Positions 5,311-64,000 of a stretch of DNA of 64,000 nucleotides are shown here, in pieces. The position numbers and the translations under genes are program-made. Each line of letters starts with the position of its first letter. The first letter of the stretch is position 1. The notes beneath the pieces were generated by a model. That model worked only from the letters and a program-made list of their open reading frames with translations. It was not told where the DNA came from and ran no database searches. The stretch lies in IMG/VR virus record IMGVR_UViG_3300024319_000011; one strand, written 5' to 3'. The stretch is from an uncultured virus (IMG/VR IMGVR_UViG_3300024319_000011). Taxonomy: Duplodnaviria; Heunggongvirae; Uroviricota; Caudoviricetes.

Positions 5311-5318
5311 GATAAATA
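5311..5318 (+). promoter_or_regulatory. T4-like late promoter (GATAAATA)
   Basis: Variant of T4 TATAAATA. The same GATAAATA lies before genes at 8228, 14083, 20178, 28545, 32764, 34854, 38716, 43818, 51482, 56368, 60869, and at 12584-12591 on the minus strand. Confidence 0.75.
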
Positions 5319-14866: not shown

Positions 14867-15276
14867 TGAAAATTTCAGAAATTATAACTGAAGGTGCTGT
14901 TTTTGCTCGCTCGGGCAAAGGTGGAGCCGGTGGGTCAGCTAAAGTTAAGATGAAATGGCGATGCGACAGTGGACCAAGAGCAGGTCGTATTGTAGCAAAA
15001 CCTGCAGACTGTGGCGGTGCTATTGATGTTGCTAAACGAGCAAAAATGAAAAAGACTCGTGCTAGAACTAAAGTTAGAGCGGCACGCAGAGCCAAAAAGA
15101 CAAAAAGATTAAATGTAGCAAGTCGTATTATGCAGTCGTTAAATAAGTTTCATCGTAGAGACTTACAAAAACGTGCTAATCAAAAAAGACGTAAACCAAC
15201 AGAAAAAATCAAAAAACGTGCAACACGCCCAACAAGAGCAACACGTCCAAGTAGAAAGCCAAAAAAATTCAAATAG
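14866..15276 (+). CDS. Highly basic putative internal head protein
   Basis: Starts MKISEIITE (capsid-targeting-like), then K/R-rich; ATG overlaps the gp13 stop. Confidence 0.6.
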   Translation: MKISEIITEGAVFARSGKGGAGGSAKVKMKWRCDSGPRAGRIVAKPADCGGAIDVAKRAKMKKTRARTKVRAARRAKKTKRLNVASRIMQSLNKFHRRDLQKRANQKRRKPTEKIKKRATRPTRATRPSRKPKKFK

Positions 15277-23891: not shown

Positions 23892-24482
23892 ATGAAAACA
23901 TTTACACAATATTTAACAGAGTCAGCTCAAACTTACTCTTACAAAATTAAAGTAGCAGGAGGCTGTGATGCTGACTGTATTAAACATTTAGAAGAACAAT
24001 TAGGGCGTTATGACATTATTAAAATGACTGAGCCTAAAACAACTCCAGTTATGGAAGATCCATTAGATTTTCCAGGTGTTAAAAACATGGAAGTTTGTAT
24101 GTTTGAAGTTGAATTAAATTATCCAGCAAGCCAGCAAGAACTATTTCAAATGATTGAAGCATGCACACGTAAGCCACAATCACAAATTAAAATTGTTACT
24201 TCGGCATTTGCAGATGGATGGGAAAACAATGAAGGTGCAGAAGCTGAAGAAGCTCCTTTACTAGAAAAAGATTACCCAGAAGAAACTAAAGAACAAAAAG
24301 AAGCAAAAGAAAAACATGCTAAACCAGAAGATCATATTGAAAATCCAGGTGATGCTAAATTTGAAGTAGCAGGAGGCGAAACCCCTAAAGCTGAATCTAC
24401 TAACGACTTACCGATGGGCGATAAGAGTCCAGTGGGTAGTACTGAAAACAAAAAGCCAGAGCCTAAAAGCTCAGCTAGATAA
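23892..24482 (+). CDS. Putative internal head/prohead core protein
   Basis: MKTFTQYLTE N-terminus closely resembles the T4 capsid-targeting sequence; CATAAATA at 23861. Confidence 0.6.
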   Translation: MKTFTQYLTESAQTYSYKIKVAGGCDADCIKHLEEQLGRYDIIKMTEPKTTPVMEDPLDFPGVKNMEVCMFEVELNYPASQQELFQMIEACTRKPQSQIKIVTSAFADGWENNEGAEAEEAPLLEKDYPEETKEQKEAKEKHAKPEDHIENPGDAKFEVAGGETPKAESTNDLPMGDKSPVGSTENKKPEPKSSAR

Positions 24483-25805: not shown

Positions 25806-26360
25806 ATGCGTATTGGTGAAATAACCAAAGACGTCATCAAAGAATCAATAGAATGGCACTTGACAAACCAAGTGCCTTTTTTTGAAAGCGTATTTAGAGC
25901 AGGTAGCGAAAACTACTACAAGCTATTTAATAATGTTAGACAACAGTACAACGAAGGTAGTATTGAATTAACAGCATTAGATCGTGCATTAATTACTGAA
26001 ACAGACATTGGTCAATTTGATATGTATGAAGGACAACGTGTTCCTCTAGATAGCCCAATGCAAGAAGCAGAGTACCAAGGAAGAGATGTAGATCTTAACA
26101 AACCTAAACGTGGTGGTAGACGTAAGTATCAAGTGTACGTTAAAGACCCTAAAACAGGTAATGTTAAGAAAGTTTCATTTGGTGATAACGTTACAGGGCT
26201 AACTGCAAAAATAAGCGACCCAGAAGCACGCAAGAATTTTGCCGCCAGACATAGATGCGACACTAAAAAAGATAAAACCAAAGCAGGTTATTGGAGTTGT
26301 AATCTTCCAAGATATGCTAAAAGTTTAGGATTAAGTGGTGGCGGAAATTTCTACTGGTAA
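25806..26360 (+). CDS. Putative internal head protein with basic C-terminal domain
   Basis: EAEYQGR...VYVKDPKTGNVKKVSFG...FAARHRC...AGYWSC. Confidence 0.6.
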   Translation: MRIGEITKDVIKESIEWHLTNQVPFFESVFRAGSENYYKLFNNVRQQYNEGSIELTALDRALITETDIGQFDMYEGQRVPLDSPMQEAEYQGRDVDLNKPKRGGRRKYQVYVKDPKTGNVKKVSFGDNVTGLTAKISDPEARKNFAARHRCDTKKDKTKAGYWSCNLPRYAKSLGLSGGGNFYW

Positions 26361-27131: not shown

Positions 27132-27590
27132 ATGTACGAATATGCAGTAACAATTAAAAGAGTAGTAGATGGCGACACTGTCGATGTAGACATTGACCTA
27201 GGCTTTGGCGTAGTATTAGTTAAAGAACGTGTTCGCATAATGGGCATTGACACACCAGAAAGTCGCACAAGAGACAAAGTAGAAAAAGTATTTGGGTTAG
27301 CCGCAAAGGATAAACTTAAATCATTGCTAGGTAAAAAATCAGTTCTAAAGTGTAAGAAGTATGATGCCAAAGGTAAGTTTGGACGTATATTGGGTGACTT
27401 TATAACCAATGACGGCAACATGGCAACAGATGTTATGATTGAATCTGGACATTGTGTAGCATACTTTGGTGGATCAAAAAACGAAGTTGAAGCAAAGCAT
27501 TTAGTTAATAGAGAAAAACTTCTACGTGAAGGTGCTATTAACATGAAAGACTATAACAAAGCTGTTAAGCTAATGGAAAAGAAAAAATGA
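27132..27590 (+). CDS. Thermonuclease (SNase-like)
   Basis: RVVDGDTVDV, VRIMGIDTPE, GKFGRILG. Confidence 0.9.
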   Translation: MYEYAVTIKRVVDGDTVDVDIDLGFGVVLVKERVRIMGIDTPESRTRDKVEKVFGLAAKDKLKSLLGKKSVLKCKKYDAKGKFGRILGDFITNDGNMATDVMIESGHCVAYFGGSKNEVEAKHLVNREKLLREGAINMKDYNKAVKLMEKKK

Positions 27591-28144
27591 AGTTTACTGA
27601 ATTTCAAGAAGGCAAATACAGAGACAATGACGTAGAAGAATTTGTTCCTAATGACGAGCAACTTGACAAAATTAAAAACAAGTTTCTTCCTGATTGGGAA
27701 ATGTTAGATCATAGAATAATACAAACAATGTATGTTTGCCAAGATCACAGACAAGCAGAAGAAATGATAGGCTTTATTAATGACCTATCTGAGAAAATGG
27801 ATCACTTTGCAGAAGTAACACAAGATGTTACAGAAGTTAAAGTAAAGACGTCTACGTTTGACGTTAAGGGTCTTACAGTGCTTGATTTCCAACTAGCTAT
27901 GTCAATAGACGCTTGGGCTGAAGAAAAAGGCATTAAACAGGCATCTACGTCAGGTAACTTTGGTATGCACGAAGATCAAGGCTTAACAGAAGCACAGTTT
28001 GATGAAGCGGCTGGAAAGAAAGATGCTTGCTATCACAAAGTAAAATCAAGATACAAAGTATGGCCTAGTGCATATGCTAGTGGTGCGTTAGTTAAGTGCC
28101 GTAAAGTAGGTGCTAAGAACTGGGGCAACAGCAAGAAGAAATGA
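27587..28144 (+). CDS. Pterin-4a-carbinolamine dehydratase-like domain fused to a basic C-terminal module
   Basis: W...SEKMDHFAE...KTSTFDVKGLTVLDFQLA follows the PCD pattern; MKFTEFQE start; C-terminal DACYHKVKSRYKVWPSAYASGALVKCRK. Confidence 0.6.
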   Translation: MKFTEFQEGKYRDNDVEEFVPNDEQLDKIKNKFLPDWEMLDHRIIQTMYVCQDHRQAEEMIGFINDLSEKMDHFAEVTQDVTEVKVKTSTFDVKGLTVLDFQLAMSIDAWAEEKGIKQASTSGNFGMHEDQGLTEAQFDEAAGKKDACYHKVKSRYKVWPSAYASGALVKCRKVGAKNWGNSKKK

Positions 28145-28530
28145 GAGCTAGTGACTTCATAACAGAACTTAATTGTCAGTATGGTGAATACTATTGTTCC
28201 CATGACAAGAAAATGAAGTGTCGCAAAACTCCTAAAAAATCAAGAACAACAGAAGATCTACGTGCTTGGTTTGGCAAAGGTAAAAAAGGTGGAGCAGGAG
28301 GAGGCGGCTGGGACCGCTATAACACTAAAGGCGAACGTATAGGTAAATGTGGAGATGCCGGAGAAGGAGAAGGCAAACCTAAATGTTTATCAAAGTCTAA
28401 AGCGGCTAGTTTAAGAGCCAAAGGCGGTAAAAAAGCAATAGCACAAGCAGTAAATAGAAAACGCAGACAGGATCCAAAGAAAGATAGGAAAGGCTCTGCT
28501 AAGAACGTCACAAACAAATATAAAAAATAA
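28141..28530 (+). CDS. Basic putative internal head protein
   Basis: MRASDFITE start; EDLRAWFGKG...PKCL...RKR. Confidence 0.6.
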   Translation: MRASDFITELNCQYGEYYCSHDKKMKCRKTPKKSRTTEDLRAWFGKGKKGGAGGGGWDRYNTKGERIGKCGDAGEGEGKPKCLSKSKAASLRAKGGKKAIAQAVNRKRRQDPKKDRKGSAKNVTNKYKK

Positions 28531-52251: not shown

Positions 52252-52968
52252 TTGAATATAAAACAACTAGCAGTATTTGGTGATAGTTGGGTATATGGAG
52301 ATGAATTAATTGACCCTGCTCATCCAGAGTGGGAGTGTTGTGATCACTACAATAATGATTATAGACTCAGTCATTGCTTCTCAGGCCTAATTGCAAAAGA
52401 ACTTGGTGTACCTTATGAAAATTTTGGTCACCCAGGTGGTAGTCTGCAGTCTGCAATTTGGACTTTCCTTTGGTTTTTAGAAAATAGAGATTGGACCGAT
52501 ACACTCTGTGTTATTGGACTAACATCACCTAATAGACAAACTTGGTATAATCCAGAACATGAACATATGGGAGATGATCCTGAATGGAATAAGTTTATAC
52601 ATTCTACTTGGATAAACTTTGGTAGCGACAGTATCAGTCCTGAATGGCAAAAGTTTGGCAAACACTATGTCGCTTATAGTGAAGACGATAAATTATCACA
52701 GTATAACTATCAACAGGCAGTTTATTTGTTTGACGGCTTAGCTAAAATTAAAAACATTCCACTAGTACAATTTAACTTATATGAACCAGAAACTGTGATC
52801 AATGGCTGTGATACACTGTTATGGCCTGATCAGAATATGCAAGGAACACTGTTAGACAGACCAGACGTTAATCAAATACACGCACCAGGAAATCATCCAA
52901 ATGAACTTGGGCATTCTATCGTATCAAAAGAGTTGTTATCCAAAATAAATGATGTTATACTAACTTAA
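52252..52968 (+). CDS. SGNH/GDSL hydrolase-like protein
   Basis: FGDSW, NFGHPGGS, NHPNELGH; TTG start. Confidence 0.7.
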   Translation: MNIKQLAVFGDSWVYGDELIDPAHPEWECCDHYNNDYRLSHCFSGLIAKELGVPYENFGHPGGSLQSAIWTFLWFLENRDWTDTLCVIGLTSPNRQTWYNPEHEHMGDDPEWNKFIHSTWINFGSDSISPEWQKFGKHYVAYSEDDKLSQYNYQQAVYLFDGLAKIKNIPLVQFNLYEPETVINGCDTLLWPDQNMQGTLLDRPDVNQIHAPGNHPNELGHSIVSKELLSKINDVILT

Positions 52969-53939
52969 TGTTAGATATTACGACTGTTATTCCTAGTAAG
53001 CATAAAAGAACTGCCTCTGGTTGGGTAAGTTTTAATGCTGTCTGTTGTACACATAATGGTGAGAATCAAGATAAAAGACAGCGTGGGGGCATTAAACAAA
53101 ACGGCGATGATTGGTCATATCACTGTTTCAATTGTGGATACAAAGCAAGTTTTAAACTAGGACGTACATTGAGCTATAAAGCACGTAAGCTGTTAGGTTG
53201 GATGGGCTTAGATCAAAATACAATATCAGGTATAAACTTAGAAAGTCTAAAACACAAGGATCTAGCAGAGCTAGTAGAAACAAGAAAGCGTGTAGAAGTT
53301 AAGGTTACATTTGAACACAAAGAATTACCTAAAGAGCTACGCTTGTTAGAAACTAGTGATAATACATTTATAGAATACCTGCGTGATAGAAAGATTGATT
53401 GGCAAGATTATCCCTACATGATAAGTCCTGATGAAAAAGGTCGTAACGCAAAACGTATTGTAGTTCCGTATACTTACGAAGGTGATGTAGTAGGATGGTC
53501 TGGTCGATACTTAGATAATCGTACTCCAAAGTTTATCAATGAACAACAACCAGGTTATGTGTTTGGTCTTGATCTACAACAAGAACACTGGACACAGTTA
53601 ATTGTAGTAGAAGGATTGTTTGATGCGTTGAGTATTAACGCAGTAGCAGTTTTGCACAACACAGTCAATGACAAACAAGCACAGATTATAAAACAGCAAC
53701 ACAAACAAATAACAGTAGTGCCAGATCAAGATGAAGCTGGGCTAAAACTAATTGATCGTGCTGTTGAACTAGGATGGGCAGTAAGTATTCCAGACTGGCC
53801 TGAACATATTAAAGATGTAAATGATGCTGTAAAACATTATGGTAAATTAGGTACATTGATAACTATTATGAACACTAGAGAAACTAGTAAAATTAAAATT
53901 GAATTGGCAAAAAGAAAACTTGTTAAAAAAGTCAAATAA
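52968..53939 (+). CDS. gp61: DNA primase (gp61/DnaG-like)
   Basis: Zn-binding CC...HCFNCG; TOPRIM VEGLFDA, PDQDEAG, KDVND. Confidence 0.9.
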   Translation: MLDITTVIPSKHKRTASGWVSFNAVCCTHNGENQDKRQRGGIKQNGDDWSYHCFNCGYKASFKLGRTLSYKARKLLGWMGLDQNTISGINLESLKHKDLAELVETRKRVEVKVTFEHKELPKELRLLETSDNTFIEYLRDRKIDWQDYPYMISPDEKGRNAKRIVVPYTYEGDVVGWSGRYLDNRTPKFINEQQPGYVFGLDLQQEHWTQLIVVEGLFDALSINAVAVLHNTVNDKQAQIIKQQHKQITVVPDQDEAGLKLIDRAVELGWAVSIPDWPEHIKDVNDAVKHYGKLGTLITIMNTRETSKIKIELAKRKLVKKVK

Positions 53940-53954
53940 CGTATAATTAAACAT

Positions 53955-55370
53955 ATGGCAAAAGAAAACAATAAAGAATACACATTAGAAATGCAAAAAC
54001 TGTTTTTGGAGATGATGCTCCAGGACGCTGAAAGCTATGTGCGTGTGCAGAACATTTATAATCCAGAAAACTTTGATCGTAGTTTACAAAGTGTAGCTGA
54101 GTTCATTAAAGAACATATAGAGAATCATAAAAGCATTCCTACACTTGAACAAGTAAAAGCAGTTACAAATGTGCAGATGCAACATGTGCCTGACTTAACT
54201 GAAGAGCATTATGGTTGGTTCTTTGAAGAGTTTGAAGGCTTTACTAGACGTCAAGAACTAGAACGTGCTATTCTTAAGAGTGCAGACTTATTAGAAAAAG
54301 GTAATTACAACCCAGTAGAAAAACTAATCAAAGAAGCAGTGCAGATTAGTTTAACTAAAGACATGGGTACAGATTACTTTGATGATCCTAAAGGTAGATT
54401 AGAATTACTTAAAAGTAAAAACGGACAAGTATCAACAGGTTGGCCAATGTTAGATAGACCATTGTATGGTGGATTTAACAGAGGTGAGCTACAGATATTT
54501 GCTGGTGGATCAGGATCAGGTAAGAGTTTGGTTATGCAGAACTTGTCAGTAAATTGGAGTCAGCAAGGACTTAACGGTGTGTACATATCCTTAGAGCTAA
54601 GTGAAGGACTGTGTGCAATGCGTATTGATAGTATGATGACTAACACATCATCAAAAGAAATATTTAAGAAACTTGAAGATGTTGAAATGAAAGTTAAGTT
54701 AGTTGGTAAGAAGTCGGGTAAACTACACATCAAATATATGCCAGCACAATCAAACGTTAATGACATTAGAGCATACTTGAAAGAACTAGAAGTACAGACA
54801 GGTAAGAAGACAGACTTTTTATGTGTTGACTATTTAGATTTGATTATGCCTGTGAGTGCTAAAGTTAGCCCAAATGATTTATTTGTTAAAGACAAATACG
54901 TATCAGAAGAATTAAGAAACTTGGCAAAAGAATTAGATGTTATATTTGTTACAGCTTCGCAGTTAAATAGAGGAGCAGTAGAAGAAGTAGAGTTTGATCA
55001 TAGTCACATTGCAGGTGGGTTAAGTAAAATTAATACAGCTGATAATGTGTTTGGTATATTTACAAGTCGTGCAATGCGAGAACGTGGAAGATATCAAATA
55101 CAGTTAATGAAAACTAGATCAAGTTCTGGTGTTGGCAGTAAAGTAGATCTAGAGTTTAATTTAGAAAGTTTAAGAATAACAGACCTAGGTGAAGAAGCAC
55201 AAGAAGGGTATACTAGACAAGCACCAAGTGACTTGATGAAATCAATTAAAACAACTACAACAGTTGGCGAACAGCCTGTAGCAAATGTAGAAGGTGAGCA
55301 ACCTAAAGTTACAGGCGAAGTACAAAGTAACAAATTGAAACAGATGTTAGGCAACTTAAAATCCAAGTAA
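53955..55370 (+). CDS. gp41: Replicative DnaB-like helicase (gp41-like)
   Basis: STGWPMLD, GGSGSGKS, ISLE, VDYLDL, TASQLNR, KTR. Confidence 0.92.
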   Translation: MAKENNKEYTLEMQKLFLEMMLQDAESYVRVQNIYNPENFDRSLQSVAEFIKEHIENHKSIPTLEQVKAVTNVQMQHVPDLTEEHYGWFFEEFEGFTRRQELERAILKSADLLEKGNYNPVEKLIKEAVQISLTKDMGTDYFDDPKGRLELLKSKNGQVSTGWPMLDRPLYGGFNRGELQIFAGGSGSGKSLVMQNLSVNWSQQGLNGVYISLELSEGLCAMRIDSMMTNTSSKEIFKKLEDVEMKVKLVGKKSGKLHIKYMPAQSNVNDIRAYLKELEVQTGKKTDFLCVDYLDLIMPVSAKVSPNDLFVKDKYVSEELRNLAKELDVIFVTASQLNRGAVEEVEFDHSHIAGGLSKINTADNVFGIFTSRAMRERGRYQIQLMKTRSSSGVGSKVDLEFNLESLRITDLGEEAQEGYTRQAPSDLMKSIKTTTTVGEQPVANVEGEQPKVTGEVQSNKLKQMLGNLKSK

Positions 55371-55376
55371 TATTAG

Positions 55377-56369
55377 ATGTATAGTATCAAAGACGTCAGG
55401 CATCTGCATTTAGAAATATCTAGCCTATGTAATGCTCGTTGTCCACTATGCCCTCGTAACTTCCACGGTTACCCCTATAATGATGGATATATAGAAAGAA
55501 ACCTCACACTTGAAGATGTTAAAAAGATATTTGAACCCAACTTTGTAAAACAGTTAACAGGAATAATGATCAATGGTAACTTTGGAGACTGTGTTATGAA
55601 TACAGAAACTCCGGCAATAGTCAAATACTTTCGACAACATAATTCCAACCTAGAAATAAAAATAAACACCAACGGCGGAGCAAGAAGTAAACAGTTTTGG
55701 CAACAGTTAGCTGAGTTAGATGCTCACGTACTGTTTGCATTAGACGGACTAGCTGATACACATTCAATATACAGACAAGACACTGTGTACGAAACAGTGT
55801 TAAAAAATGCTAAGACTTTTATTAAAGCAGGTGGTCAAGCTACATGGAAGATGATTCCATTTGATCATAATCAGCATCAAATTAAAACTTGCCGAGAACT
55901 GAGCAAGCAACTTGGATTTAGTAATTTTACATTAACAGACCAAGGTAGAGACACTGGTATTGCTGTTGATAAAAAAGGCAAGGTAGTTAACCTGTTGGGC
56001 ACACCTAAAAAGATTAATTTTGAACAGCTATTACAATCTAAAAAAACTGATCAAGTATTGTTAGAAGATCTTGACCCCAAAGTTAAACAAATAACCTGCG
56101 AAGTAAAGAAAAGTAAATCAATATATGTAACATCAACAGGTGAAGTGTATCCTTGTTGTTATACTGGCTTTTATCCAAGAACATACGGACACGGTCAGTA
56201 CTATGAAGTAGTTAATAAACAGTTAAAAAATATTATTGAACCTAACAATGCCTTAGAAACTTCATTAGAAGAAAGCATTGGGTGGTTTAATATAATAGAA
56301 CAGAGTTGGAACACTGAAGACTTTAAACAAGGCCGCTTACTGATATGTAATGATGTGTGCGGTTCCTGA
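55377..56369 (+). CDS. Radical SAM enzyme with C-terminal SPASM/twitch-like domain
   Basis: CNARCPLC (CxxxCxxC); NTNG; C...GEVYPCC...CNDVC. Confidence 0.88.
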   Translation: MYSIKDVRHLHLEISSLCNARCPLCPRNFHGYPYNDGYIERNLTLEDVKKIFEPNFVKQLTGIMINGNFGDCVMNTETPAIVKYFRQHNSNLEIKINTNGGARSKQFWQQLAELDAHVLFALDGLADTHSIYRQDTVYETVLKNAKTFIKAGGQATWKMIPFDHNQHQIKTCRELSKQLGFSNFTLTDQGRDTGIAVDKKGKVVNLLGTPKKINFEQLLQSKKTDQVLLEDLDPKVKQITCEVKKSKSIYVTSTGEVYPCCYTGFYPRTYGHGQYYEVVNKQLKNIIEPNNALETSLEESIGWFNIIEQSWNTEDFKQGRLLICNDVCGS

Positions 56370-56399
56370 TAAATACTATCACTAACGGAAACTTAACTT

Positions 56400-56645
56400 A
56401 TGCAACGTAAAACAAAAAGTATTTTAGATGAACTGAGCTCAATGCACATTAGCAAAGACAGAAACCACTTAGTGGAAAGTCGTGCTAATAACATTATTCA
56501 ATCTGCTATCAATATTTTTGAACAGATTGATAATCTATACGATTCTGAAGCGGCAGAAGATTTACAGCGTAAGTTTGTTAACGCAATTAAATCAAGAGAC
56601 CCTAAAAAGTTTTCCCGATCAGTGAGACGTAAAGATGAAGATTAA
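56400..56645 (+). CDS. Small hypothetical late protein
   Basis: Late promoter at 56368; MQRKTKSILDEL. Confidence 0.7.
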   Translation: MQRKTKSILDELSSMHISKDRNHLVESRANNIIQSAINIFEQIDNLYDSEAAEDLQRKFVNAIKSRDPKKFSRSVRRKDED

Positions 56646-57165
56646 TGAAATTGTTCAAGAAGGTATACTAGATAACCTTAAAGGTAAAATTGGTAGATAC
56701 CAAAATGCTCAGGCAATGAAGCAAGCTGGTGTACTTGGTGCACGTGCCTGGAAAAAGTACCTTGCTGGTTTAGAAGCCGCAAATGACTACAACGAAATAC
56801 AACCAGGACTAGTTAAAACACATTTACGTAATTGGATTGATCAATCATTATTCGGAAGGTATAGTTTAAATACTGCACCTGGCCCGATACAGCAAAGCGT
56901 CAATGCTTTTATTGGACAACTTGCTCAAGATCCTAAAGATACTACTAAGTTAGAAAAAGCATTTTCTGCAATTCTTAACCAAACACGTAAGATGCAGTTA
57001 GACCCAGGTGCAAAATCTACACAACAAAAACCAGTTGCTGGCGGCAAACAAATATGTGACCAACCAACAAAACAAATTGGTAATTCATTATTTGTGTGCG
57101 GACAAGAAATAAAACAAGGCGATCCAGGATATGATGAGCTTGTTAAAAAACTGGGCGTAGAATAA
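56635..57165 (+). CDS. Putative internal head protein
   Basis: MKINEIVQE N-terminus. Confidence 0.6.
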   Translation: MKINEIVQEGILDNLKGKIGRYQNAQAMKQAGVLGARAWKKYLAGLEAANDYNEIQPGLVKTHLRNWIDQSLFGRYSLNTAPGPIQQSVNAFIGQLAQDPKDTTKLEKAFSAILNQTRKMQLDPGAKSTQQKPVAGGKQICDQPTKQIGNSLFVCGQEIKQGDPGYDELVKKLGVE

Positions 57166-57166
57166 C

Positions 57167-58966
57167 ATGCAAATAATCGAAGGCGGAAACGTATTTAAAG
57201 ATGAGAAAGGTACAGCGTTAACTAAACGTATCAATCTTGTCGACGTTAAGCCCACTGTTAAGTATTTAGAATCGTTAACAGGACTTTCCCTACTAGATAA
57301 CATGCTAGGGTCAACAGGCAAAAAACCTACATCAGGTGACTTAGATCTTGCAGTAGATGCAAAAAAACATACCAAAGATGAAGTATACAACAAATTAATT
57401 GCAAAAGGTGCAAGTCCCCAGGACGTTGCTAAATCAGGCGACTCAGTCCATTATAAGTGCCCAATCAACGGTGATCCAATGAACGGATATGTGCAAGTTG
57501 ACTTTATGTTTGGTGATCCTAAATGGCAACAATTTGCATTAAATGCAAGTTCTGATTCAGAATTTAAAGGTGTACACCGTGCAATACTATTAGCTAGCAT
57601 TGCCAAAGCAAGAGGTATGAAATGGTCATACAAATACGGACTAGTATCAAGAGAAACAAATAAAGTTATTTCAAATGATCCAGATGAAATTGCAAAAATG
57701 CTAATAGGCGGAACACGTAAAGATCTAGCAAGTGTAGAAACAATTATTGCACAAGCACAAAAGAACAACGACTATGAAGAACTAGTAGCAGACGCAAGAG
57801 AATACTTTGCTAAGGATGGACTACAATTTGAATCAACAGAAGTTAATTGGATTGCTCGTACAAGAGATAGACTTATTAATCAAGGTATGCAGGTTATTAC
57901 AGAAGCGGCTCGTATTGAACATCCTGAAGATATGATCTTTGATAGTGGAAGCCAAGGTGCATTAAAAGCTGTTACTGATTTAAAAACATTACCGCAAAAA
58001 GCCAAAGACATTACAATTAAATGGGACGGTAAGCCAGCAATTATATTTGGACGTGATGAAGATGGCCAGTTTGTATTAACAGATAAGTCAGGCTTTACAG
58101 CTAAAACATATCAAGGACTAGCACGTTCTCCAGAAGAGCTAGAAAAAGTAATGCAAATGAGAGGCGGCGATCGTACAGAATTAATTAACATGTACAAAGC
58201 ACTATGGGCACCATTAGAAGCACAGACACCAAAATCAATGACAGGTTATCTCAAAGGTGATTTATTATATACAGGTACTCCAAGCAAACAAGGAAACAAA
58301 TACGTGTTTACACCAAACACTGTTACATACTCAGTTGATGCAGATACTGACTTAGGTAAACAGATTGGAACTAGTAAAGCAGGTGTAGCAATACATACAC
58401 GTTTAACTGACCCACAAGATGCAGGAACACCGTTCTATGCAGTAGAACAACTGCCAACAGGCCCTGTGTTATTTGTAGGACCTAAAATGAAAGATACGCC
58501 TAAGGTAGATATACCAACAGATAGATTAGAACAAATTGAAAAAACAGTTAAGGCTAGCCAAGGTGCTATTGATGCTTTCTTTTCACCTAACAACCTACGT
58601 GAGATACAGATGGCAAACTTACCAGCTTTAATGAAACAGTATGCCAACTTTAAAGTTAGAGAAGGTAACTTTGATAACATGGCTGAAAACTTTTTAGCAT
58701 GGGCAACAACTAAAGTAAGTGCACCTAAAGCACAAAGACTAGAACAATATATTAACAATAATATGAAGATAGTAGAATTAATATTTTCTATCTTTAAGGC
58801 CATTGCTGTTATTAAGACACAGGTAGTTAGAGCGTTAGATCAACAAGGCGGTGGTATAACAGCATCAATAGATGGCGAGTCAGGGCATGAAGGTTATGTA
58901 GCAGGTGGACTTAAATATGTTGATCGTTTAAGATTTTCAAAATCAAACTTTGCGAAGAATGTATAA
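57167..58966 (+). CDS. Fusion of Pol-beta-type nucleotidyltransferase and ATP-dependent ligase-like domain
   Basis: LGSTGKKPTSGDLDLAVD...VQVDFM; then HPED, IKWDG, KGDLLY, EGYV, KYVDR. Confidence 0.65.
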   Translation: MQIIEGGNVFKDEKGTALTKRINLVDVKPTVKYLESLTGLSLLDNMLGSTGKKPTSGDLDLAVDAKKHTKDEVYNKLIAKGASPQDVAKSGDSVHYKCPINGDPMNGYVQVDFMFGDPKWQQFALNASSDSEFKGVHRAILLASIAKARGMKWSYKYGLVSRETNKVISNDPDEIAKMLIGGTRKDLASVETIIAQAQKNNDYEELVADAREYFAKDGLQFESTEVNWIARTRDRLINQGMQVITEAARIEHPEDMIFDSGSQGALKAVTDLKTLPQKAKDITIKWDGKPAIIFGRDEDGQFVLTDKSGFTAKTYQGLARSPEELEKVMQMRGGDRTELINMYKALWAPLEAQTPKSMTGYLKGDLLYTGTPSKQGNKYVFTPNTVTYSVDADTDLGKQIGTSKAGVAIHTRLTDPQDAGTPFYAVEQLPTGPVLFVGPKMKDTPKVDIPTDRLEQIEKTVKASQGAIDAFFSPNNLREIQMANLPALMKQYANFKVREGNFDNMAENFLAWATTKVSAPKAQRLEQYINNNMKIVELIFSIFKAIAVIKTQVVRALDQQGGGITASIDGESGHEGYVAGGLKYVDRLRFSKSNFAKNV

Positions 58967-59538
58967 TGGACTTTATTAAAGAATTAATTGAATCAAGAAT
59001 GTATCGTAGACTTGAACAAGTTAAAGGTACTGATGTGGCTACAATAGGCAGTCTAGTGTTTGATCACATGTTAATGTTAAGAGTTTTATATTATATTGAT
59101 AAAAAGAAAGCACAGCGGTATGCTAAAGATACAATGAAACAACAAAACTTTAGTGGCTTTAGACAGTCAATGACTGACTTATATAATTTCTTAACACTGG
59201 TTATTAGTCAACGTCAATATGCAGATAAGCTATTCAATGATTGGGATATTGTTATTCCAGAATTAAGAATCAAACGTGTTCTACGTGCTGTTGCAGATGG
59301 CGACATGGACGAAAGAGATTATGATTCGTTATTACTATTGTTAAGCAGACGTATTAAAAACTTAACCGGAGACCAAATGTGGTTACGTAGACTAGTGCAA
59401 GACTGGCAAAAACGTATCAGCAGAATGGACCAGACACAAGCAATGACTCGTATACTACAAACAGTTAGACGTCCTATTAATACTGACTTGTATATGGCAT
59501 TGCAATCATCAAGTAAAGTAACTCCAACAAATACATAA
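58966..59538 (+). CDS. Hypothetical protein with capsid-targeting-like start
   Basis: MDFIKELIE-SRMYR; translationally coupled. Confidence 0.65.
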   Translation: MDFIKELIESRMYRRLEQVKGTDVATIGSLVFDHMLMLRVLYYIDKKKAQRYAKDTMKQQNFSGFRQSMTDLYNFLTLVISQRQYADKLFNDWDIVIPELRIKRVLRAVADGDMDERDYDSLLLLLSRRIKNLTGDQMWLRRLVQDWQKRISRMDQTQAMTRILQTVRRPINTDLYMALQSSSKVTPTNT

Positions 59539-59780
59539 TGGCTAATTGGGCATACGTAATATTCGCCTGTGCTATGATAAATGGCGATCCACAATGTGAT
59601 CCAGAACCTGTATCTATAGTTGATAACTTCACTACTGAAACAGCGTGTACTGTCTTTGCAGTATTGTCCACAACAATGATTAATGACGATATGTACAAAC
59701 AAGGTATTACAGACAGTTGGGCAGTGCCATCACAGTGCCAGATTGTGCCCGGAGAAGCTGATAAATTCTTTGTATATTAA
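59538..59780 (+). CDS. Small 4-Cys hypothetical protein with hydrophobic N-terminus
   Basis: WAYVIFACAM...C...C...C; coupled start. Confidence 0.55.
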   Translation: MANWAYVIFACAMINGDPQCDPEPVSIVDNFTTETACTVFAVLSTTMINDDMYKQGITDSWAVPSQCQIVPGEADKFFVY

Positions 59781-59864
59781 TAAACTGTACTTAAAATAGT
59801 TGAATATTAGACTAAATAAGTGTAGGGAAAGAATAAATTCCCATATAACTAAGGAGATATTATT

Positions 59865-60116
59865 ATGGCAGTTTTAGCAGGTAAAGGAACAGTTTCACAA
59901 TCACAAGGCGTAGGTCCAAAAACTTACATCTATGCAATCACTACAGGTACAATTACAGTATCAGACGCATGTGACTCAATCACTACAACTTACTTCGGTA
60001 CAGTTGCGGCAGTTGAAGGTACAGCAGACGGCAACCATATTATGGTTCAAGGTGGACCAGGTGGTGCTGAAGCAGTTTCAGGTATTGCACTAGTAGCTAC
60101 ATTCGCTAACGCTTAA
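59865..60116 (+). CDS. Small late structural protein
   Basis: CTAAATA promoter, AAGGAG RBS, terminator downstream. Confidence 0.7.
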   Translation: MAVLAGKGTVSQSQGVGPKTYIYAITTGTITVSDACDSITTTYFGTVAAVEGTADGNHIMVQGGPGGAEAVSGIALVATFANA

Positions 60117-60142
60117 TTGAGTTAGACTAGTACTAAATTAAA

Positions 60143-60171
60143 GAGCCCTACTTTTTTAAGTGGGGTTTTTT
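60143..60171 (+). terminator. Rho-independent terminator
   Basis: GAGCCCTACTT/AAGTGGGGTTT stem plus T-tract. Confidence 0.7.
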
Positions 60172-60189
60172 ATTGGGTTAAATATCTAT

Positions 60190-60444
60190 ATGGAACAACA
60201 AGAACTGTTTAAGAAAGATACTACTCGTTGGATATATGAATCACCTGATGGTGGGTCAACTTTATATAGACGTAAAGCCAACGATCCTCATCACAAGCGT
60301 GAACTAGTTAAACAGTTAGATGATGAATTCAAAGATTATAGAGACTGGATGTATAAACAGGATTGGTCTGAGCTAAGTAAAAATTCAATGGTTAAAGAAT
60401 CTATAGATAAGTTGAGAGTGCTGGTAGAACTTATAAAAGAATGA
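60190..60444 (+). CDS. Hypothetical protein
   Basis: WIYESPDGGSTLYRR; start moved to the ATG 5 nt after TAAATA. Confidence 0.7.
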   Translation: MEQQELFKKDTTRWIYESPDGGSTLYRRKANDPHHKRELVKQLDDEFKDYRDWMYKQDWSELSKNSMVKESIDKLRVLVELIKE

Positions 60445-60860
60445 TCCGTTGTTACACATTAGTTGATATTACTCAGACCGGGTTTACTAGAAAGCCAAAA
60501 ACTCCTGAGCAGATTGTACAGCGTAATCAACAACGCAATTATGAAACATTTATACAGCTAATATCATTACGAAGCCAACCTCAACTAATTCACGCTCCGC
60601 AACAAATAGAAAATATTGATATAGGCGATTATGAGTTTGGTAGCTATTATATGCCAAGTATTTTTCAATATAACCTATGGATATTTGATTTTAACAGTGA
60701 TCACCTAGACTCGTATGCTACAGTCAACAACCCTGTGGGAAGTTTAACTAACGATTTCAATAACATACCTATAATCAGCGGATTGTCGGAGACTGCCAGT
60801 ATACAAGGGGTTATAAGCACCCATGGTGAACACCTCAACACTTATTTTCAGTGTTTTTAG
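60441..60860 (+). CDS. Hypothetical protein
   Basis: YTLVDITQTG...RNQQRNYETFIQLISLRSQP. Confidence 0.7.
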   Translation: MIRCYTLVDITQTGFTRKPKTPEQIVQRNQQRNYETFIQLISLRSQPQLIHAPQQIENIDIGDYEFGSYYMPSIFQYNLWIFDFNSDHLDSYATVNNPVGSLTNDFNNIPIISGLSETASIQGVISTHGEHLNTYFQCF

Positions 60861-60997
60861 ACTATTGTGATAAATAAAAACAAGAACTAGTTTAACTAGT
60901 AACAAAGCATTTACGATAACATTTTATAGGCACAAACAGGCTACTTTTAGGCACAACATAGTAAGATTGCTTTAATATCCTATTGGAGAAAAAAGCA

Positions 60998-61255
60998 GTG
61001 AGTACTACTCGAATTGAGAAAGAGAATTTAGAAGCCCACGTAGAGTTATGTGCCGAGAGGTATGATGCGTTGGAAACTAAATTAGACACAGTTGAAGAAA
61101 AAGTAAGTTCACTTGAAACCAGTGTAGGCGAAATCAAAGATATGATTACTCATCTTGATAGACGTCGTTCCACACAGTTAATCACTTGGGCAGGTACAGC
61201 AATTACAATGCTAATTGGCGTTGTTGGCTGGCTTTTAACAAAGTTTGTTTGGTAG
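60998..61255 (+). CDS. Coiled-coil protein with C-terminal transmembrane helix (holin/XhlA-like)
   Basis: LEAHVELCAERY heptads then LITWAGTAITMLIGVVGWLL; GTG start after GGAG. Confidence 0.6.
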   Translation: MSTTRIEKENLEAHVELCAERYDALETKLDTVEEKVSSLETSVGEIKDMITHLDRRRSTQLITWAGTAITMLIGVVGWLLTKFVW

Positions 61256-61260
61256 TCACT

Positions 61261-61746
61261 ATGACTACAGAAACTTCCTTTCGTAAACTAAAATCTCTCA
61301 CTACTCATAGTCTACAAAGTCTTTCTGCAAATATTATCGTCAAAGTTAAAGATGATTATATAGTTTTTAATCGCTACAAAATTTCCCCAACAGATCATGG
61401 TTACTATGAAGTATATCGTAACGACACTTTAGTACACGAGTTTACAAATAGTCGTAATGCGTTAGCATGGTGTATACTAGAAAAGCATGCAAGGATAGAA
61501 GATGCAAATAGCTTATTAGGTCAAGATAAAAAGATAGGGTGGCTTGAGCTAGATATTGATAGACAAACACAGATAATGAACACCACTCAAGATAATGATA
61601 GAAGAGCGTTGATGGCAACTAAAGTAACTAATAACATTCATGTAAGAGGTGATATTAAAATTAAGTTACAAGAGCAAATTGAATTGGCTAAATACTATCA
61701 ACAAAAAGGATTCGACAATGAAACTGCAAGAACTAGCAAAAAATAA
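61261..61746 (+). CDS. Hypothetical protein
   Basis: ORF filling the gap; ATG 61261 avoids overlap with the upstream gene. Confidence 0.6.
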   Translation: MTTETSFRKLKSLTTHSLQSLSANIIVKVKDDYIVFNRYKISPTDHGYYEVYRNDTLVHEFTNSRNALAWCILEKHARIEDANSLLGQDKKIGWLELDIDRQTQIMNTTQDNDRRALMATKVTNNIHVRGDIKIKLQEQIELAKYYQQKGFDNETARTSKK

Positions 61747-62545
61747 AATAAAACAGGTTGGCAAAATCATGGAAGGCCACTTTAATCGAGATATTAATGT
61801 GTCAAAACTATCAATGGAACAAGCAAAAACATTGTTAGCTAAGACATCTAACATAGTTGCTGAAGTACAGTCTAGCATTAACAGACACACAAGTGAAAGT
61901 AATCCAACATATCTCCAAGCACTAATGATGAAAGAAGCATTAGAAGCATATATTAAAGAAGGTACAGCTGAAACTAGAAATCCATATGCAGGCGGTACAG
62001 GAGAGCAAAAACATATTGCTCCAGGTGCAATGGCTCCAGCAGACATCAAAAAAGATGATGACGAAATGGAAGAAGCATGTGGCTCTACTCATAAAAAGAA
62101 AATGAAAGAGTACGGTAAGAAAAAAACTTACGAAGCTAAACAAATTAACGAAGCAGACGTTGAAGAAGCTCAAGTAACATTAGCGGCTCAAGACGTAGTT
62201 GATAGAATCCAAAAAATGTATGAAGATACAGCAGAAATGCAATATAAAGACTTACCTAACCTAGCACAAATGATGAAACAAGAGCTAGGCATTAATCAAA
62301 CACAGGCATACTATGATGCAACTAACACAGCAATTTCAACACTAGTTACTGCATTAGAGCAAGCAAAGACAGACTTAGAAAGTGCAATGGCTCCAATCAC
62401 AGGTGAAGAAACTATTAGCCCTGAAGAATTTACAGAACCAGAAGCAGATGTAGAAGATAACAGCACACCGCCAGAAATGGATGATGAAGAAGCAGTTATT
62501 GACGCACCGGAACTAGATACAGATTTAGGCAGAGAAAGAAGATAA
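61718..62545 (+). CDS. Acidic prohead core/scaffold-like protein
   Basis: MKLQEL start, CTAAATA promoter, AAGGA RBS, INE-ADVEEAQVTLAA, acidic tail. Confidence 0.55.
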   Translation: MKLQELAKNKIKQVGKIMEGHFNRDINVSKLSMEQAKTLLAKTSNIVAEVQSSINRHTSESNPTYLQALMMKEALEAYIKEGTAETRNPYAGGTGEQKHIAPGAMAPADIKKDDDEMEEACGSTHKKKMKEYGKKKTYEAKQINEADVEEAQVTLAAQDVVDRIQKMYEDTAEMQYKDLPNLAQMMKQELGINQTQAYYDATNTAISTLVTALEQAKTDLESAMAPITGEETISPEEFTEPEADVEDNSTPPEMDDEEAVIDAPELDTDLGRERR

Positions 62546-62865
62546 TGAAACTATTTGAGGTATATGGTTCAGAGCATGAGCTAGCGGCCTTAGTTCAGTA
62601 TCTTATCAGCCGTTCAGAAGATTTAGGCACTAAAGGAAAAGTAGGAACAGAATCTTTTCTTAAAATGGCAGATAATTTAGGTGTTAATGTGTCGATGTCA
62701 CAACTACAATCAATGGCACAACGACAGCCATTAAGCAATATGATTGCAGATGTTAATCCACAGCATGTTAGTTTTGATTTAACAAGCACAAAGAATCCTA
62801 CAATGAGTGTTGATAAAGCACGTAAAACAGTTGACTCCATGGCAAAACGAGCGATGAAAAGGTAA
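62545..62865 (+). CDS. Putative head-associated protein
   Basis: MKLFE start; translationally coupled. Confidence 0.6.
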   Translation: MKLFEVYGSEHELAALVQYLISRSEDLGTKGKVGTESFLKMADNLGVNVSMSQLQSMAQRQPLSNMIADVNPQHVSFDLTSTKNPTMSVDKARKTVDSMAKRAMKR

Positions 62866-62893
62866 ACTCAACATCAATCGTTGCTACTCCAGT

Positions 62894-62920
62894 AGCCCTA
62901 TCTTTTGGTAGGGCTTTTTT
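62894..62920 (+). terminator. Rho-independent terminator
   Basis: AGCCCTATC-TTTT-GGTAGGGCT plus T-tract. Confidence 0.85.
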
Positions 62921-62924
62921 ATGG

Positions 62925-62954
62925 TTGACATTCAGACAATAAATAGTATACAAT
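62925..62954 (+). promoter_or_regulatory. Overlapping sigma70-type and late promoters for the isc genes
   Basis: TTGACA-N18-TACAAT with ATAAATA (62939-62945) in the spacer. Confidence 0.55.
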
Positions 62955-62981
62955 AATACAATGTATTAAGGAAAAATATAT

Positions 62982-63362
62982 ATGGCATATTCAGATAAAG
63001 TTTTAGATCATTATGAGAATCCAAGAAATGTTGGATCTTTAGATAAAGACAGTAAAGATGTAGGAACTGGCATGGTTGGCGCACCTGCTTGTGGTGACGT
63101 TATGAAACTACAGATACAGGTAGAAGAAGGTGTTATCAAAGATGCCAAGTTCAAAACATATGGATGCGGTTCGGCTATAGCAAGTTCAAGTCTAGTAACA
63201 GAAATGTTAAAAGGTAAAACTATTGACCAAGCAGGTGATATTAAAAACTCAGCAATAGCAGAAGAACTAGCACTACCACCAGTTAAGATACATTGCTCTG
63301 TACTAGCAGAGGACGCTATCAAATCAGCAATAATTGATTACAAAGAGAAGAATTCTAAATGA
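62982..63362 (+). CDS. iscU: Fe-S cluster scaffold IscU
   Basis: [37 protein letters not shown]. Confidence 0.97.
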
Positions 63363-63688
63363 TAACAGTAACAGAGTCAGCAGTAAAAAAATTAAAAGAA
63401 ATACTAGCAGAAGAAAACAACCCTGATCTTAAAGTTAGAATGTTTGTTAGTGGAGGTGGGTGCAGTGGTATGCAATATGGATTCACACTAGAAGATCAAC
63501 CTGCAAATGAAGATGACTTTGATTTAGAAGTTGCACCAGGTGTACACATGTTAGTAGACGCAATGAGCGGACAGTATGTACAAGGTGCTGAAGTTGATTG
63601 GAAAGAGTCAGTACAAGGTGCACAGTTTGCTATTAGCAATCCTAACGCACAAACAAGTTGTGGATGTGGATCCAGTTTCTCAGTATGA
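63359..63688 (+). CDS. erpA: A-type Fe-S carrier ErpA-like
   Basis: [32 protein letters not shown]. Confidence 0.85.
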
Positions 63689-64000
63689 TAACTTTAACAG
63701 ATAAAGCATACGAACGAGCGTTACATTCAATTCAATCAAGAGAAAATACTATAGGACTTCGTGTTGGAGTAAGAACAGCAGGATGTTCTGGACTTGCTTA
63801 TGTATTAGAGTTTGTTGACCAAATTGGTGAACATGACGAAGTGTTTGAGATTAAAGATGTTAAAATAATAATAGACAAGAAAAGTCTTGTATATCTTAAT
63901 GGATTAGAAATGGATTGGGTTAAACAAGGACTCAACGAAGGCTTTGAATTTAATAACCCAAATGCCAATGGTGAATGTGGCTGTGGGGAAAGTTTTACTG
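63685..64000 (+). CDS. iscA: A-type Fe-S carrier IscA (3' end truncated by window)
   Basis: MITLTDKA...[20 protein letters not shown]...[24 protein letters not shown]. Confidence 0.92.

Follow-up and report, generated by a model that had tools for sequence, protein, structure and literature searches.

A Pol X-like domain fused to a ligase-like DUF6267 domain in a marine jumbo phage: a candidate packaged extend-and-seal polyprotein

The 64,000-nucleotide (nt) stretch of uncultured viral DNA IMGVR_UViG_3300024319_000011, hereafter the window, carries on its + strand an open reading frame (ORF; 57167-58966) for a two-domain protein of 599 amino acids (aa), in which a domain resembling family X polymerases (Pol X) precedes a ligase-like domain, DUF6267. 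The explanation that we favour, and which from sequence, structural models and analogy we give an even chance, is that this protein is a packaged polyprotein from which a protease releases two enzymes that extend and seal; activity, packaging and cleavage are all predicted. The 599-aa protein would be made late and taken into the prohead core, where a T4-type prohead protease would cut it at E5-G6 and E246-A247, yielding two free enzymes that would both be ejected with the DNA. In the cell, the Pol X-like enzyme would add one or a few nucleotides to a 3′-OH at a gap or damaged end, and the ligase would then seal the resulting nick via a Lys285-adenosine monophosphate (AMP) intermediate.

The window originates from a T4-related myovirus, as Pfam and PHROG scans revealed genes for tail sheath, tube, terminase and gp32-, UvsX-, UvsY- and Dda-like proteins. 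Its helicase is 54% identical to that of the Pseudomonas jumbo phage PA5oct, compared with ∼24% for cyanophage S-WAM1 and phage Melnitz. A related contig of 344 kilobases (kb), G002, has terminal repeats and an estimated completeness of 100%. Since CheckV scales the partial related records to a size similar to that of G002, the phage is a jumbo phage, and we conclude that the source is a T4-related marine jumbo phage of ∼340 kb. A search of the window for tRNA genes found none.

The two predicted enzymatic domains

The protein is composed as follows (pLDDT, predicted local distance difference test score).

57167..57181, + strand: leader M-Q-I-I-E, a putative prohead-protease propeptide with its cut at E5-G6 (from conservation, and pLDDT below 50 at residues 1-6)
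57182..57766, + strand: Pol X-like nucleotidyltransferase (NTase) domain, residues 6-200, with palm (G48-S49, D58, D60, D112) plus thumb (from VIA-align 2 and Foldseek)
57767..57904, + strand: helical tail and flexible linker, residues 201-246, ending in V-I-T-E246, the second putative protease site (from pLDDT and conservation)
57905..58963, + strand: ligase-like covalent nucleotidyltransferase domain DUF6267, residues 247-599 (from PF19782 and structure comparison)
58517..58840, + strand: all-helical insert, residues 451-558, between the motif IIIa region and motif IV (from secondary structure of the models)

A sequence-only reading had described a Pol-beta-type NTase signature followed by ligase-style motifs, and the strings on which it relied are real. 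All are present in the 599-aa translation, with LGSTGKKPTSGDLDL at residues 47-61, VQVDFM at 109-114, KWDG at 285-288, KGDLLY at 363-368, EGYV at 575-578 and KYVDR at 583-587, and with the candidate cut-site strings IIE-GGN at 3-8 and ITE-AARIEH at 244-252. In 30 relatives of 47-82% identity, the putative catalytic residues D58, D60, D112 and K285 were invariant, together with G48, W286, D287, G288 and D365 and with the residues of the last two ligase motifs (E575, G576, Y577, V578, K583, D586 and R587). More than 3,000 metagenome homologues of the protein were found, among which the fused form of about 600 aa is common. The AlphaFold2 model of the full chain had a mean pLDDT of 86.3, and confidence was low only at residues 1-6 and in the linker at ∼221-250.

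Comparison of the N-terminal domain (N-domain) model with known structures by VIA-align 2 pointed to Pol X. Pol beta (4rpx) matched with a Z of 10.6 and a root-mean-square deviation (rmsd) of 3.5 over 164 aligned residues, model residues 11-191 superposing on Pol beta 139-335, that is, on palm and thumb. Thermus PolX reached Z 10.4, and Pol X of African swine fever virus (ASFV; 5hr9) Z 9.2, with 156 of 176 residues aligned and model residues 19-190 lying on ASFV residues -1 to 174. For the top Pol X structures, the alignments extended over 156-175 residues across palm and thumb, whereas terminal uridylyltransferases, CD-NTases, CCA-adding enzymes and toxin NTases matched the palm only (∼90 residues, Z at most 8.1); CD-NTases and protein-modifying minimal NTases gave such palm-only matches at Z 6-7. 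Since other NTases align over the palm alone, the domain is Pol X-like rather than a generic Pol-beta NTase. The original assignment is thus retained for the NTase fold and its three aspartates and replaced for the class: none of the classes that had been listed (CCA-adding, poly(A), cGAS and toxin NTases) fits as well as Pol X. The best Foldseek matches were Pol lambda, mu and beta and Tth PolX (E ∼1e-3). Furthermore, D58, D60, D112 and G48-S49 are also invariant in 19 sequences that include the stand-alone homologues of PA5oct and Phosso.

The 8-kilodalton (kDa) lyase and fingers domains are absent, as the N-domain begins at residue 6 and aligns from the palm onward. ASFV Pol X likewise does without both, so they are not obligatory for every family X member. 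Judging from the model, we conclude that the N-domain, a predicted polymerase, is Pol X-like in the minimal form known from ASFV, consisting of palm and thumb. Its family comprises 1,372 representative clusters at E of 0.001 or below and 785 at E of 1e-10 or below, and it occurs stand-alone (∼230-260 aa) or within longer chains.

The C-terminal domain matched the Pfam profile PF19782 with an E of 1.8e-46 and a score of 159.7 bits, where the cut-off is 27, and residues 250-597 covered positions 4-374 of the 376 in the profile. On what we take to be the ligase consensus, DUF6267 holds motif I (K285-W-D-G288), motif III (G-D365-L-L-Y), motif IV (E575-G-Y-V) and motif V (K583-x-V-D-R). KWDG is invariant in 33 sequences that include cyanophage stand-alone DUF6267 proteins, and motifs III, IV and V are invariant and in canonical order in the 30 fused relatives as well as in the 33-sequence set. 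Atypical features are the distance of only 8 residues between motifs IV and V, a motif V made of one lysine plus arginine, and ∼108 helical residues before motif IV.

When DUF6267 was folded alone from the 33 sequences, the model reached a pLDDT of 93.4 and a predicted template modelling score of 0.88. The 23 best matches to this model among 48,161 representative chains (VIA-align 2) were all polynucleotide ligases. NgrRnl, the nick-sealing Rnl of Naegleria (5cot), came first with Z 7.9, rmsd 4.2 and 180 aligned residues; T4 Rnl2 (Z 6.6), T4 Rnl1 (6.2), fungal Trl1 (6.0) and DNA ligases (5.1-5.9) were further matches. A link from DUF6267 to an RNA_ligase cluster in the Atlas scored 0.78, under the threshold of the tool, and is a lead only. 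Taken together, the uniform ligase matches, the invariant ordered motifs and this lead are consistent with, rather than strong evidence for, the fold of an ATP-dependent polynucleotide ligase without an oligonucleotide-binding (OB) domain, closest to the nick-sealing RNA ligases and of predicted activity. Foldseek and VIA-align 2 together gave NTase and ligase folds for the two domains.

After motif V, both sequence and model show that 12 residues and one terminal helix end the chain. Only 12 residues beyond KYVDR leave no room for an OB domain, which agrees with the ligase-type domain without OB that had been proposed. The ligase alignments cover ∼180 of the 353 DUF6267 residues and bypass the helical insert, which, as modelled, stands in place of the OB domain. 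Small helical bundles (saposin-like, Z ∼5) matched residues 235-298 of the DUF6267 domain model. Our literature search found no paper mentioning DUF6267.

DUF6267 was present in 30 of the 46 long proteins with an N-domain. It mostly follows the N-domain and precedes it in three proteins (P0168, P0169 and P0189). Each half also exists stand-alone. Cyanomyovirus S-WAM1 and Melnitz encode DUF6267 proteins of ∼400 aa downstream of their helicases, and N-domains of 237 aa in PA5oct and 286 aa in Phosso are encoded after the primase-helicase genes and a homologue of p81, the first gene of the operon described below. In PA5oct, the N-domain gene EST35_0231 lies three genes downstream of EST35_0228, a weak candidate for a divergent ligase-like gene: it had a BFVD match (E 6.8e-4) to a 446-aa PA5oct protein, equal to it in length, and a weak local profile match of 70% probability over the EGYV...K-VD region. 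Two other candidates were set aside: hhalign gave a probability of 0.4% for a relationship of Phosso protein 446 to the ligase-like domain, and the gene that precedes DUF6267 in cyanophages showed no similarity to the N-domain.

Candidate cleavage sites and proposed packaging

In the available text of PMC9026906, T4 gp21 is described as cleaving head proteins after L/I-X-E, and the packaged enzyme Alt as shedding a 7-residue propeptide. A possible maturation-protease site had been pointed out before each domain of the 599-aa protein, and at both places [L/I]xE proved to be conserved far beyond chance. Directly ahead of GGN, [LIVMF]xE was found in 77/77 domain starts from 80 viral loci. The search pattern located 110 domain starts among the 149 family representatives P0149-P0297, and the tripeptide preceded GGN in 104 of these, including 60 of the 62 where the domain is internal; as a control, it stands at any fixed position in 1.8%. 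Three representatives, PA5oct and Phosso begin with M-[GS]-G and have no leader. This pattern of a leader or nothing is as a cleavage site predicts and is less expected of a structural element.

For the second site, the linker had block means of pLDDT of 53, 62 and 48 over residues 221-250, and E246 was accompanied by I, L or V at P3 in 30/30 aligned relatives. At varying distances, but within 12 residues before the DUF6267 start, [LIVMF]xE occurred in 37 of 40 representatives, compared with 15% of random 12-mers. Residues 225-238 (57839-57880) form an isolated helix before this [L/I]xE, with consensus ARLRDRIVNQGM and with R233, D234 and R235 invariant; the helix lies outside both folds and may be a docking or targeting element.

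With respect to the protease itself, a Peptidase_S77 prohead protease was detected in the complete relative G002 (E 5.9e-24) and not in four fragmentary records. The PHROG matches of the window ORFs included no prohead-protease family, Peptidase_S77 itself not having been sought there. Evidence from virions is available for PA5oct, where the N-domain homologue EST35_0231 was detected with 6 peptides and 56.96% coverage (Table S5, PMC7318152). Within a 14-kb stretch of 20 annotated features, this protein and 11 others are marked as structural proteins detected by mass spectrometry (MS).

Several N-domain relatives (P0194, P0230, P0280, P0185, P0186, P0179 and P0195) are giant multi-domain proteins, in which the Pol X-like domain is joined to Tad3, ART-PolyVal, NUDIX, NT5C, Amidoligase_2 and DUF5661 domains. 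Tad3 is an inhibitor of Thoeris. Polyvalent proteins, as presented in the available text of PMC5512222, include multi-domain chains of the ART-PolyVal type that are predicted to be packaged, processed by peptidases and injected early. The fusion of N-domain relatives to ART-PolyVal and Tad3, as in injected polyvalent proteins, was therefore counted toward packaging.

Within the window, 7 of 75 ORFs start with M-x-[LIVMF]-x-E. Further [L/I]xE leaders are MKTFTQYLTE, MKISE, MRIGE, MKFTE and MRASDFITE, at 23892-24482, 14866-15276, 25806-26360, 27587-28144 and 28141-28530, respectively; the ORF with the MKTFTQYLTE leader matches a PHROG annotated as ‘virion structural protein’. By their sequences, these ORFs may encode further packaged, protease-processed proteins.

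The predicted late operon and its surroundings

The genes around the fusion gene are arranged as follows.

52968-53939: primase, directly before the DnaB-like helicase (from Pfam/PHROG)
53955-55370: DnaB-like helicase (from Pfam/PHROG)
56369..56375, + strand: late-promoter-like ATAAATA (context TGATAAATAC), 31 nt before p81, the first operon gene
56400..56645, + strand: p81, 81 aa, matching phrog_11854 ‘virion structural protein’ (E 7.4e-17), with a 10-residue leader ending in I-L-[E/D]
56635..57165, + strand: p176, fast-evolving, with an M-K-I-N-E leader (MKINEIVQE); its stop precedes the start codon of the fusion gene by 1 nt
58966..59538, + strand: p190, with leader M-D-F-I-K-E-L-I-E and no Pfam/PHROG family; in 19/80 loci
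59538..59780, + strand: p80, no Pfam/PHROG family
59865..62915, + strand: rest of the conserved late block, p83, p94, p139, p90, p186, p298 and p106 (from synteny in 80 loci)
60870, + strand: second ATAAATA of the late block, after p139 and before p90
62894-62915, + strand: intrinsic terminator with a 9-pair stem and T-run, closing the late block

The proposal of a late operon found support in the T4-late-type motif at 56369. In 51 of 60 distinct relatives, the 80 nt ahead of p81 contained ATAAATA, against a background of 1.75%; the motif preceded 0/25 helicase and 0/11 primase genes. The + strand of the window has 17 copies of ATAAATA, mostly as TGATAAATA, and the - strand has 2. Of the 17, 13 sit 12-49 nt ahead of gene starts, including those of tail sheath, tail tube and head-tail adaptor. 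For the exact sequence of the T4 late promoter, TATAAATA, the window had 3 matches, fewer than shuffled sequence, and the informative element is the 7-mer ATAAATA in its TGATAAATA context. Sigma-70-type promoters and terminators in 55000-63000 were as numerous as in shuffles, and only the terminator at 62894 was convincing. From 56400 to 59780, the stop of each gene adjoins or overlaps the start of the next (56645/56635, 57165/57167, 58966/58966 and 59538/59538), and the conserved block goes on to the terminator. Because a conserved motif heads the unit, we read it as a late operon. The sequence thus supports the placement of the enzyme gene in a late operon, although downstream of the replication module, and its late expression is predicted. 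Across the window, TGATAAATA-type motifs at 5312, 8229, 14084, 16841, 20179, 23862, 28546, 32765, 38717, 43819, 51483, 56369, 60870 and 62939 look like starts of late transcription units.

The genes flanking the fusion gene had been noted for starts resembling capsid-targeting sequences, and such starts are indeed present in MKINEIVQE (56635) and MDFIKELIE (58966), the latter being conserved in close relatives. The p81 gene was found in 67 of 80 related loci with a conserved leader, MQKKTRS[IL][LF][ED]E, and also follows the primase-helicase genes in PA5oct and Phosso. By tblastn, p176 matched in 1/80 loci, and it has no Pfam or PHROG family. At its position, loci L003-L082 hold 69 distinct ORFs of at least 70 aa in 16 unrelated clusters, 10 representatives of which had no Pfam family; in the largest cluster, 34 of 35 carried [LIVMF]xE within the first 16 residues. 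The idea that p176 supplies the absent 8-kDa/fingers part of Pol X was dropped on these grounds. Nearly all of these hypervariable genes keep an M-x-I-x-E leader, which recalls the variable internal-protein loci of T4-like phages. In P0079 (789 aa), a p176 homologue is fused in frame ahead of the enzyme, where the window has TAA and one base between the two genes.

Farther downstream, p298 has its true start at 61718 (MKLQE) and matches phrog_14154 ‘virion structural protein’, and p106 starts with MKLFE. Pfam searches with the genes of the variable region and the downstream block returned no families except a sub-threshold DUF7310. A radical SAM/SPASM protein is encoded between helicase and late operon (55377-56369), and one IscU-like and two IscA-like genes for Fe-S assembly follow the block (62982-63999; IscU in 21/80 and IscA in 15/80 loci); the Fe-S assembly genes could serve the radical SAM enzyme. 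On the other side of the primase, between it and a tail-fibre-like gene, 52252-52968 encodes a 238-aa protein with a weakly GDSL-lipase-like C-terminus that is found in 5/80 related loci.

Alternative readings and known systems

Several observations weigh against the extend-and-seal polyprotein. Sequence profiles do not tie the N-domain to Pol X: residues 1-245 had no Pfam or PHROG match, the Pfam thumb profile matched weakly in 3 of 19 N-domain members (best E 0.14) and not in the window protein, and a PDB sequence-profile search returned no Pol X chain at E up to 10. For DUF6267, the Z scores to ligase folds are all below 8, a range that the tool calls common, Foldseek searches against pdb were weak (E at least 0.14), and a PDB sequence-profile search linked the domain to no solved structure. 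The [L/I]xE residues could be mere parts of the domains, and the sequences counted are homologues, not independent events. The virion MS of PA5oct also lists 7 ‘virion-unrelated enzymes’, so some contamination is possible, and EST35_0228 is not among the PA5oct entries annotated as MS-detected. The stand-alone DUF6267 proteins of cyanophages start without a leader, and for 16 of the 18 checked, the 90 nt upstream held no late motif. Finally, the complete relative G002 had no apurinic/apyrimidinic (AP) endonuclease, no clear polynucleotide kinase and no RlaP, the searches giving either no match or only one below threshold, and neither a full base excision repair set nor a full RNA-healing set is visible in it.

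As these repair partners were not found in G002, they do not discriminate between DNA and RNA. The closest ligase folds, of the Rnl5 and Rnl2 types, seal duplex nicks, and the fold of the polymerase belongs to the type that fills gaps on a template, which favours a duplex substrate. Such a substrate could, on the models, consist of gaps and nicks in incoming phage DNA, possibly ribonucleotide-patched, or of broken structured RNA, for example tRNA, and we make no choice between DNA and RNA. Either substrate has its parallels, PgVPolX and ASFV Pol X with its ligase for DNA and the RlaP + Rnl pairs for RNA.

The alternative that fares best, unlikely though we consider it, is a late RNA or tRNA repair enzyme that is cytoplasmic and not packaged, a counterpart of the RlaP + Rnl pairs of other jumbo phages. 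DUF6267 resembles RNA ligases most and lacks an OB domain, and the cyanophage DUF6267 proteins are without packaging signals. That Pol-beta NTases associate with RNA ligases is well established according to the portion of PMC7824862 that we consulted, and RlaP adds one or two nucleoside monophosphates to damaged RNA, according to the accessible text of 10.64898/2025.12.29.696909. G002 has neither RlaP nor a ligase-family match beyond its canonical DNA ligase, which itself accounts for the PF09414 matches in the relatives; with no other RNA-ligase-family match in G002, the fused pair could be its sole RNA-ligase-type system. However, the search for Rnl1 (PF09511) in the relatives, which gave no match, is uninformative because its control matched nowhere, and G002 has no kinase or phosphatase partner for end healing. 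Moreover, the N-domain matches the palm and thumb of Pol X and not RlaP: 0/19 N-domain sequences matched PF10127 at E up to 10, and the records of five relatives gave no PF10127 match in a search whose control was positive in two genomes. The 599-aa protein itself had no match to PF09511 or PF09414, Pfam giving DUF6267 alone at E up to 0.1. The late promoter, the [L/I]xE sites, the MS data for PA5oct virions and the polyvalent-type fusions favour packaging.

We are more doubtful about a packaged effector of counter-defence or host takeover that repairs no polynucleotide, in which the NTase would nucleotidylate a protein or would synthesise or modify a small nucleotide and the ligase-like part would be an adenylyltransferase of nicotinamide adenine dinucleotide (NAD+) or nucleotide metabolism. 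This reading draws on the Tad3, ART-PolyVal, NUDIX, NT5C and Amidoligase_2 partners of the N-domain and on cytidylyltransferase-like (HIGH-type NTase) domains, which occur in 9 of the 46 long N-domain proteins. A domain of the latter type is also fused to DUF6267 in S-PM2 and uncultured phages and encoded by an adjacent gene in S-WAM1 and Melnitz, the link being seen at L001 5191-6246, at L002 5583-7535 and in BFVD matches. The extend-and-seal model does not explain this recurrent association, which counts against it and keeps a nucleotide/NAD+ reading alive; the HIGH NTases of jumbo phages are read as nicotinamide mononucleotide adenylyltransferases of NAD+ salvage in the available part of PMC7824862. 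Nevertheless, the N-domain has the thumb typical of templated polymerases, where CD-NTases and protein-modifying NTases match the palm only, and motifs III, IV and V, which position the 5′-phosphate of a polynucleotide, are invariant. In addition, polyvalent fusions may reflect co-delivery rather than a shared pathway, as far as the text of PMC5512222 goes.

A more speculative variant, to which we attach little probability, is that cleavage by the prohead protease would not just free the enzymes but activate them. The mature N-domain, whether it starts as M-G-G or after [L/I]xE, would open with a free glycine before an invariant G-N-x-F-K. The alpha-amino group of this glycine, perhaps with K11, could be the Schiff-base nucleophile of a lyase for 5′-deoxyribose phosphate (dRP) or AP sites and replace the absent 8-kDa domain. 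In T4 endonuclease V and Fpg, the nucleophile is likewise provided by the N-terminal residue. A lyase-polymerase-ligase set would mend phage DNA damaged by sunlight or oxidation on entry, maybe by filling with ribonucleotides. Bacterial LigD repair fills with ribonucleotides, and an Rnl2/Rnl5-like ligase prefers them at the nick.

Processing of Okazaki fragments or gaps by a replication-module enzyme in place of an absent replicative DNA ligase is highly improbable: the gene lies ∼1.8 kb downstream of the DnaB-like helicase, with the primase just before the latter, and cyanophages, Melnitz, PA5oct and Phosso have retained this position, but a canonical ATP-dependent DNA ligase (PF01068, ∼460 aa) was present in 5/5 relatives’ records including the 344-kb genome, a late-type motif that separates p81 from the helicase/radical-SAM genes opens a new unit, with none before helicase and primase, and the ligase fold has no OB domain. 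The nearest relative record, G001, gave no PF01068 match, which is uninformative for a fragment of only 32.7 kb.

If the extend-and-seal polyprotein is real, it would provide a function for DUF6267, a core gene of marine cyanomyoviruses and many uncultured jumbo phages, and for the whole Pol X-like family of the 1,372 clusters. The enzymes that phages are known to package serve to modify host proteins, to block restriction or for transcription. Enzymes that repair nucleic acids and travel with the genome would then form a new class of virion cargo, and such a pre-loaded kit would bear on how phages survive DNA damage outside the cell and on how they forestall nuclease-based defences ahead of all phage gene expression. 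The family might also yield laboratory tools in the form of compact polymerases (∼195 aa) and OB-less ligases. The packaging prediction is directly testable in the culturable phage PA5oct, where the N-domain homologue and the candidate ligase-like gene are separate genes.

The kinds of system to which the protein belongs are known (polymerase-ligase fusions, NTase-ligase repair pairs and packaged enzymes of the T4 type), and their combination as seen here was not found in our literature search. This search, by title and abstract for family X, phage, RNA ligase and virion, found no paper naming a fusion of a Pol X-like domain with DUF6267. The systems compared below are taken as the consulted portions of the cited sources present them.

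PgVPolX of Phaeocystis globosa virus 16T, a polymerase-lyase-ligase fusion that fills a gap and seals the nick (PMC5537341), resembles the phage protein in joining polymerase and ligase in one viral protein. It differs in its NAD+-dependent DNA ligase module, its dRP/AP-lyase activity and its origin from a giant virus of algae (PMC5537341). The phage protein has palm and thumb only, an OB-less, RNA-ligase-like DUF6267 of the ATP type, a bacterial host and sites of the prohead-protease type. In ASFV, Pol X and the ligase are both present in the virion. ASFV Pol X is likewise a minimal palm and thumb, and in base excision repair it partners the viral ATP-dependent DNA ligase on damaged viral DNA; however, the two are separate genes, the ligase has OB and DNA-binding domains, and there is an AP endonuclease partner (PMC9353306). 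In G002, no such endonuclease was found.

The RlaP + Rnl pairs share with the phage protein the coupling of a Pol-beta-superfamily NTase to an OB-less ATP-dependent RNA ligase and the proposed order of nucleotide addition followed by ligation (PMC7824862; 10.64898/2025.12.29.696909). In contrast to these pairs, the N-domain is Pol X-like and not PF10127, and the ligase stands outside the Rnl Pfam families. The known pairs are separate cytoplasmic proteins and not late, leader-bearing fusions, as far as the text of PMC7824862 describes them. Like T4 Alt and the internal proteins (PMC9026906), the phage protein is predicted to be expressed late, has a short putative propeptide ending in L/I-X-E and a T4-type prohead protease within its lineage, as seen in G002, and is expected to be ejected with the DNA. 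Alt is an ADP-ribosyltransferase, and the text of PMC9026906 that we consulted describes no packaged polymerase-ligase for T4. Compared with Alt, the phage protein has a leader of 5 residues, plus an internal site that would split a polyprotein. Finally, polyvalent proteins likewise carry several unrelated enzymatic domains per chain, ART-PolyVal and Tad3 being found in relatives of the N-domain (PMC5512222). In the sections of that survey available to us, a Pol X-like domain, DUF6267 and prohead-protease sites are not mentioned, and the domains and processing described are minimal Pol-beta NTases of Firmicute elements and zincin-like processing (PMC5512222).

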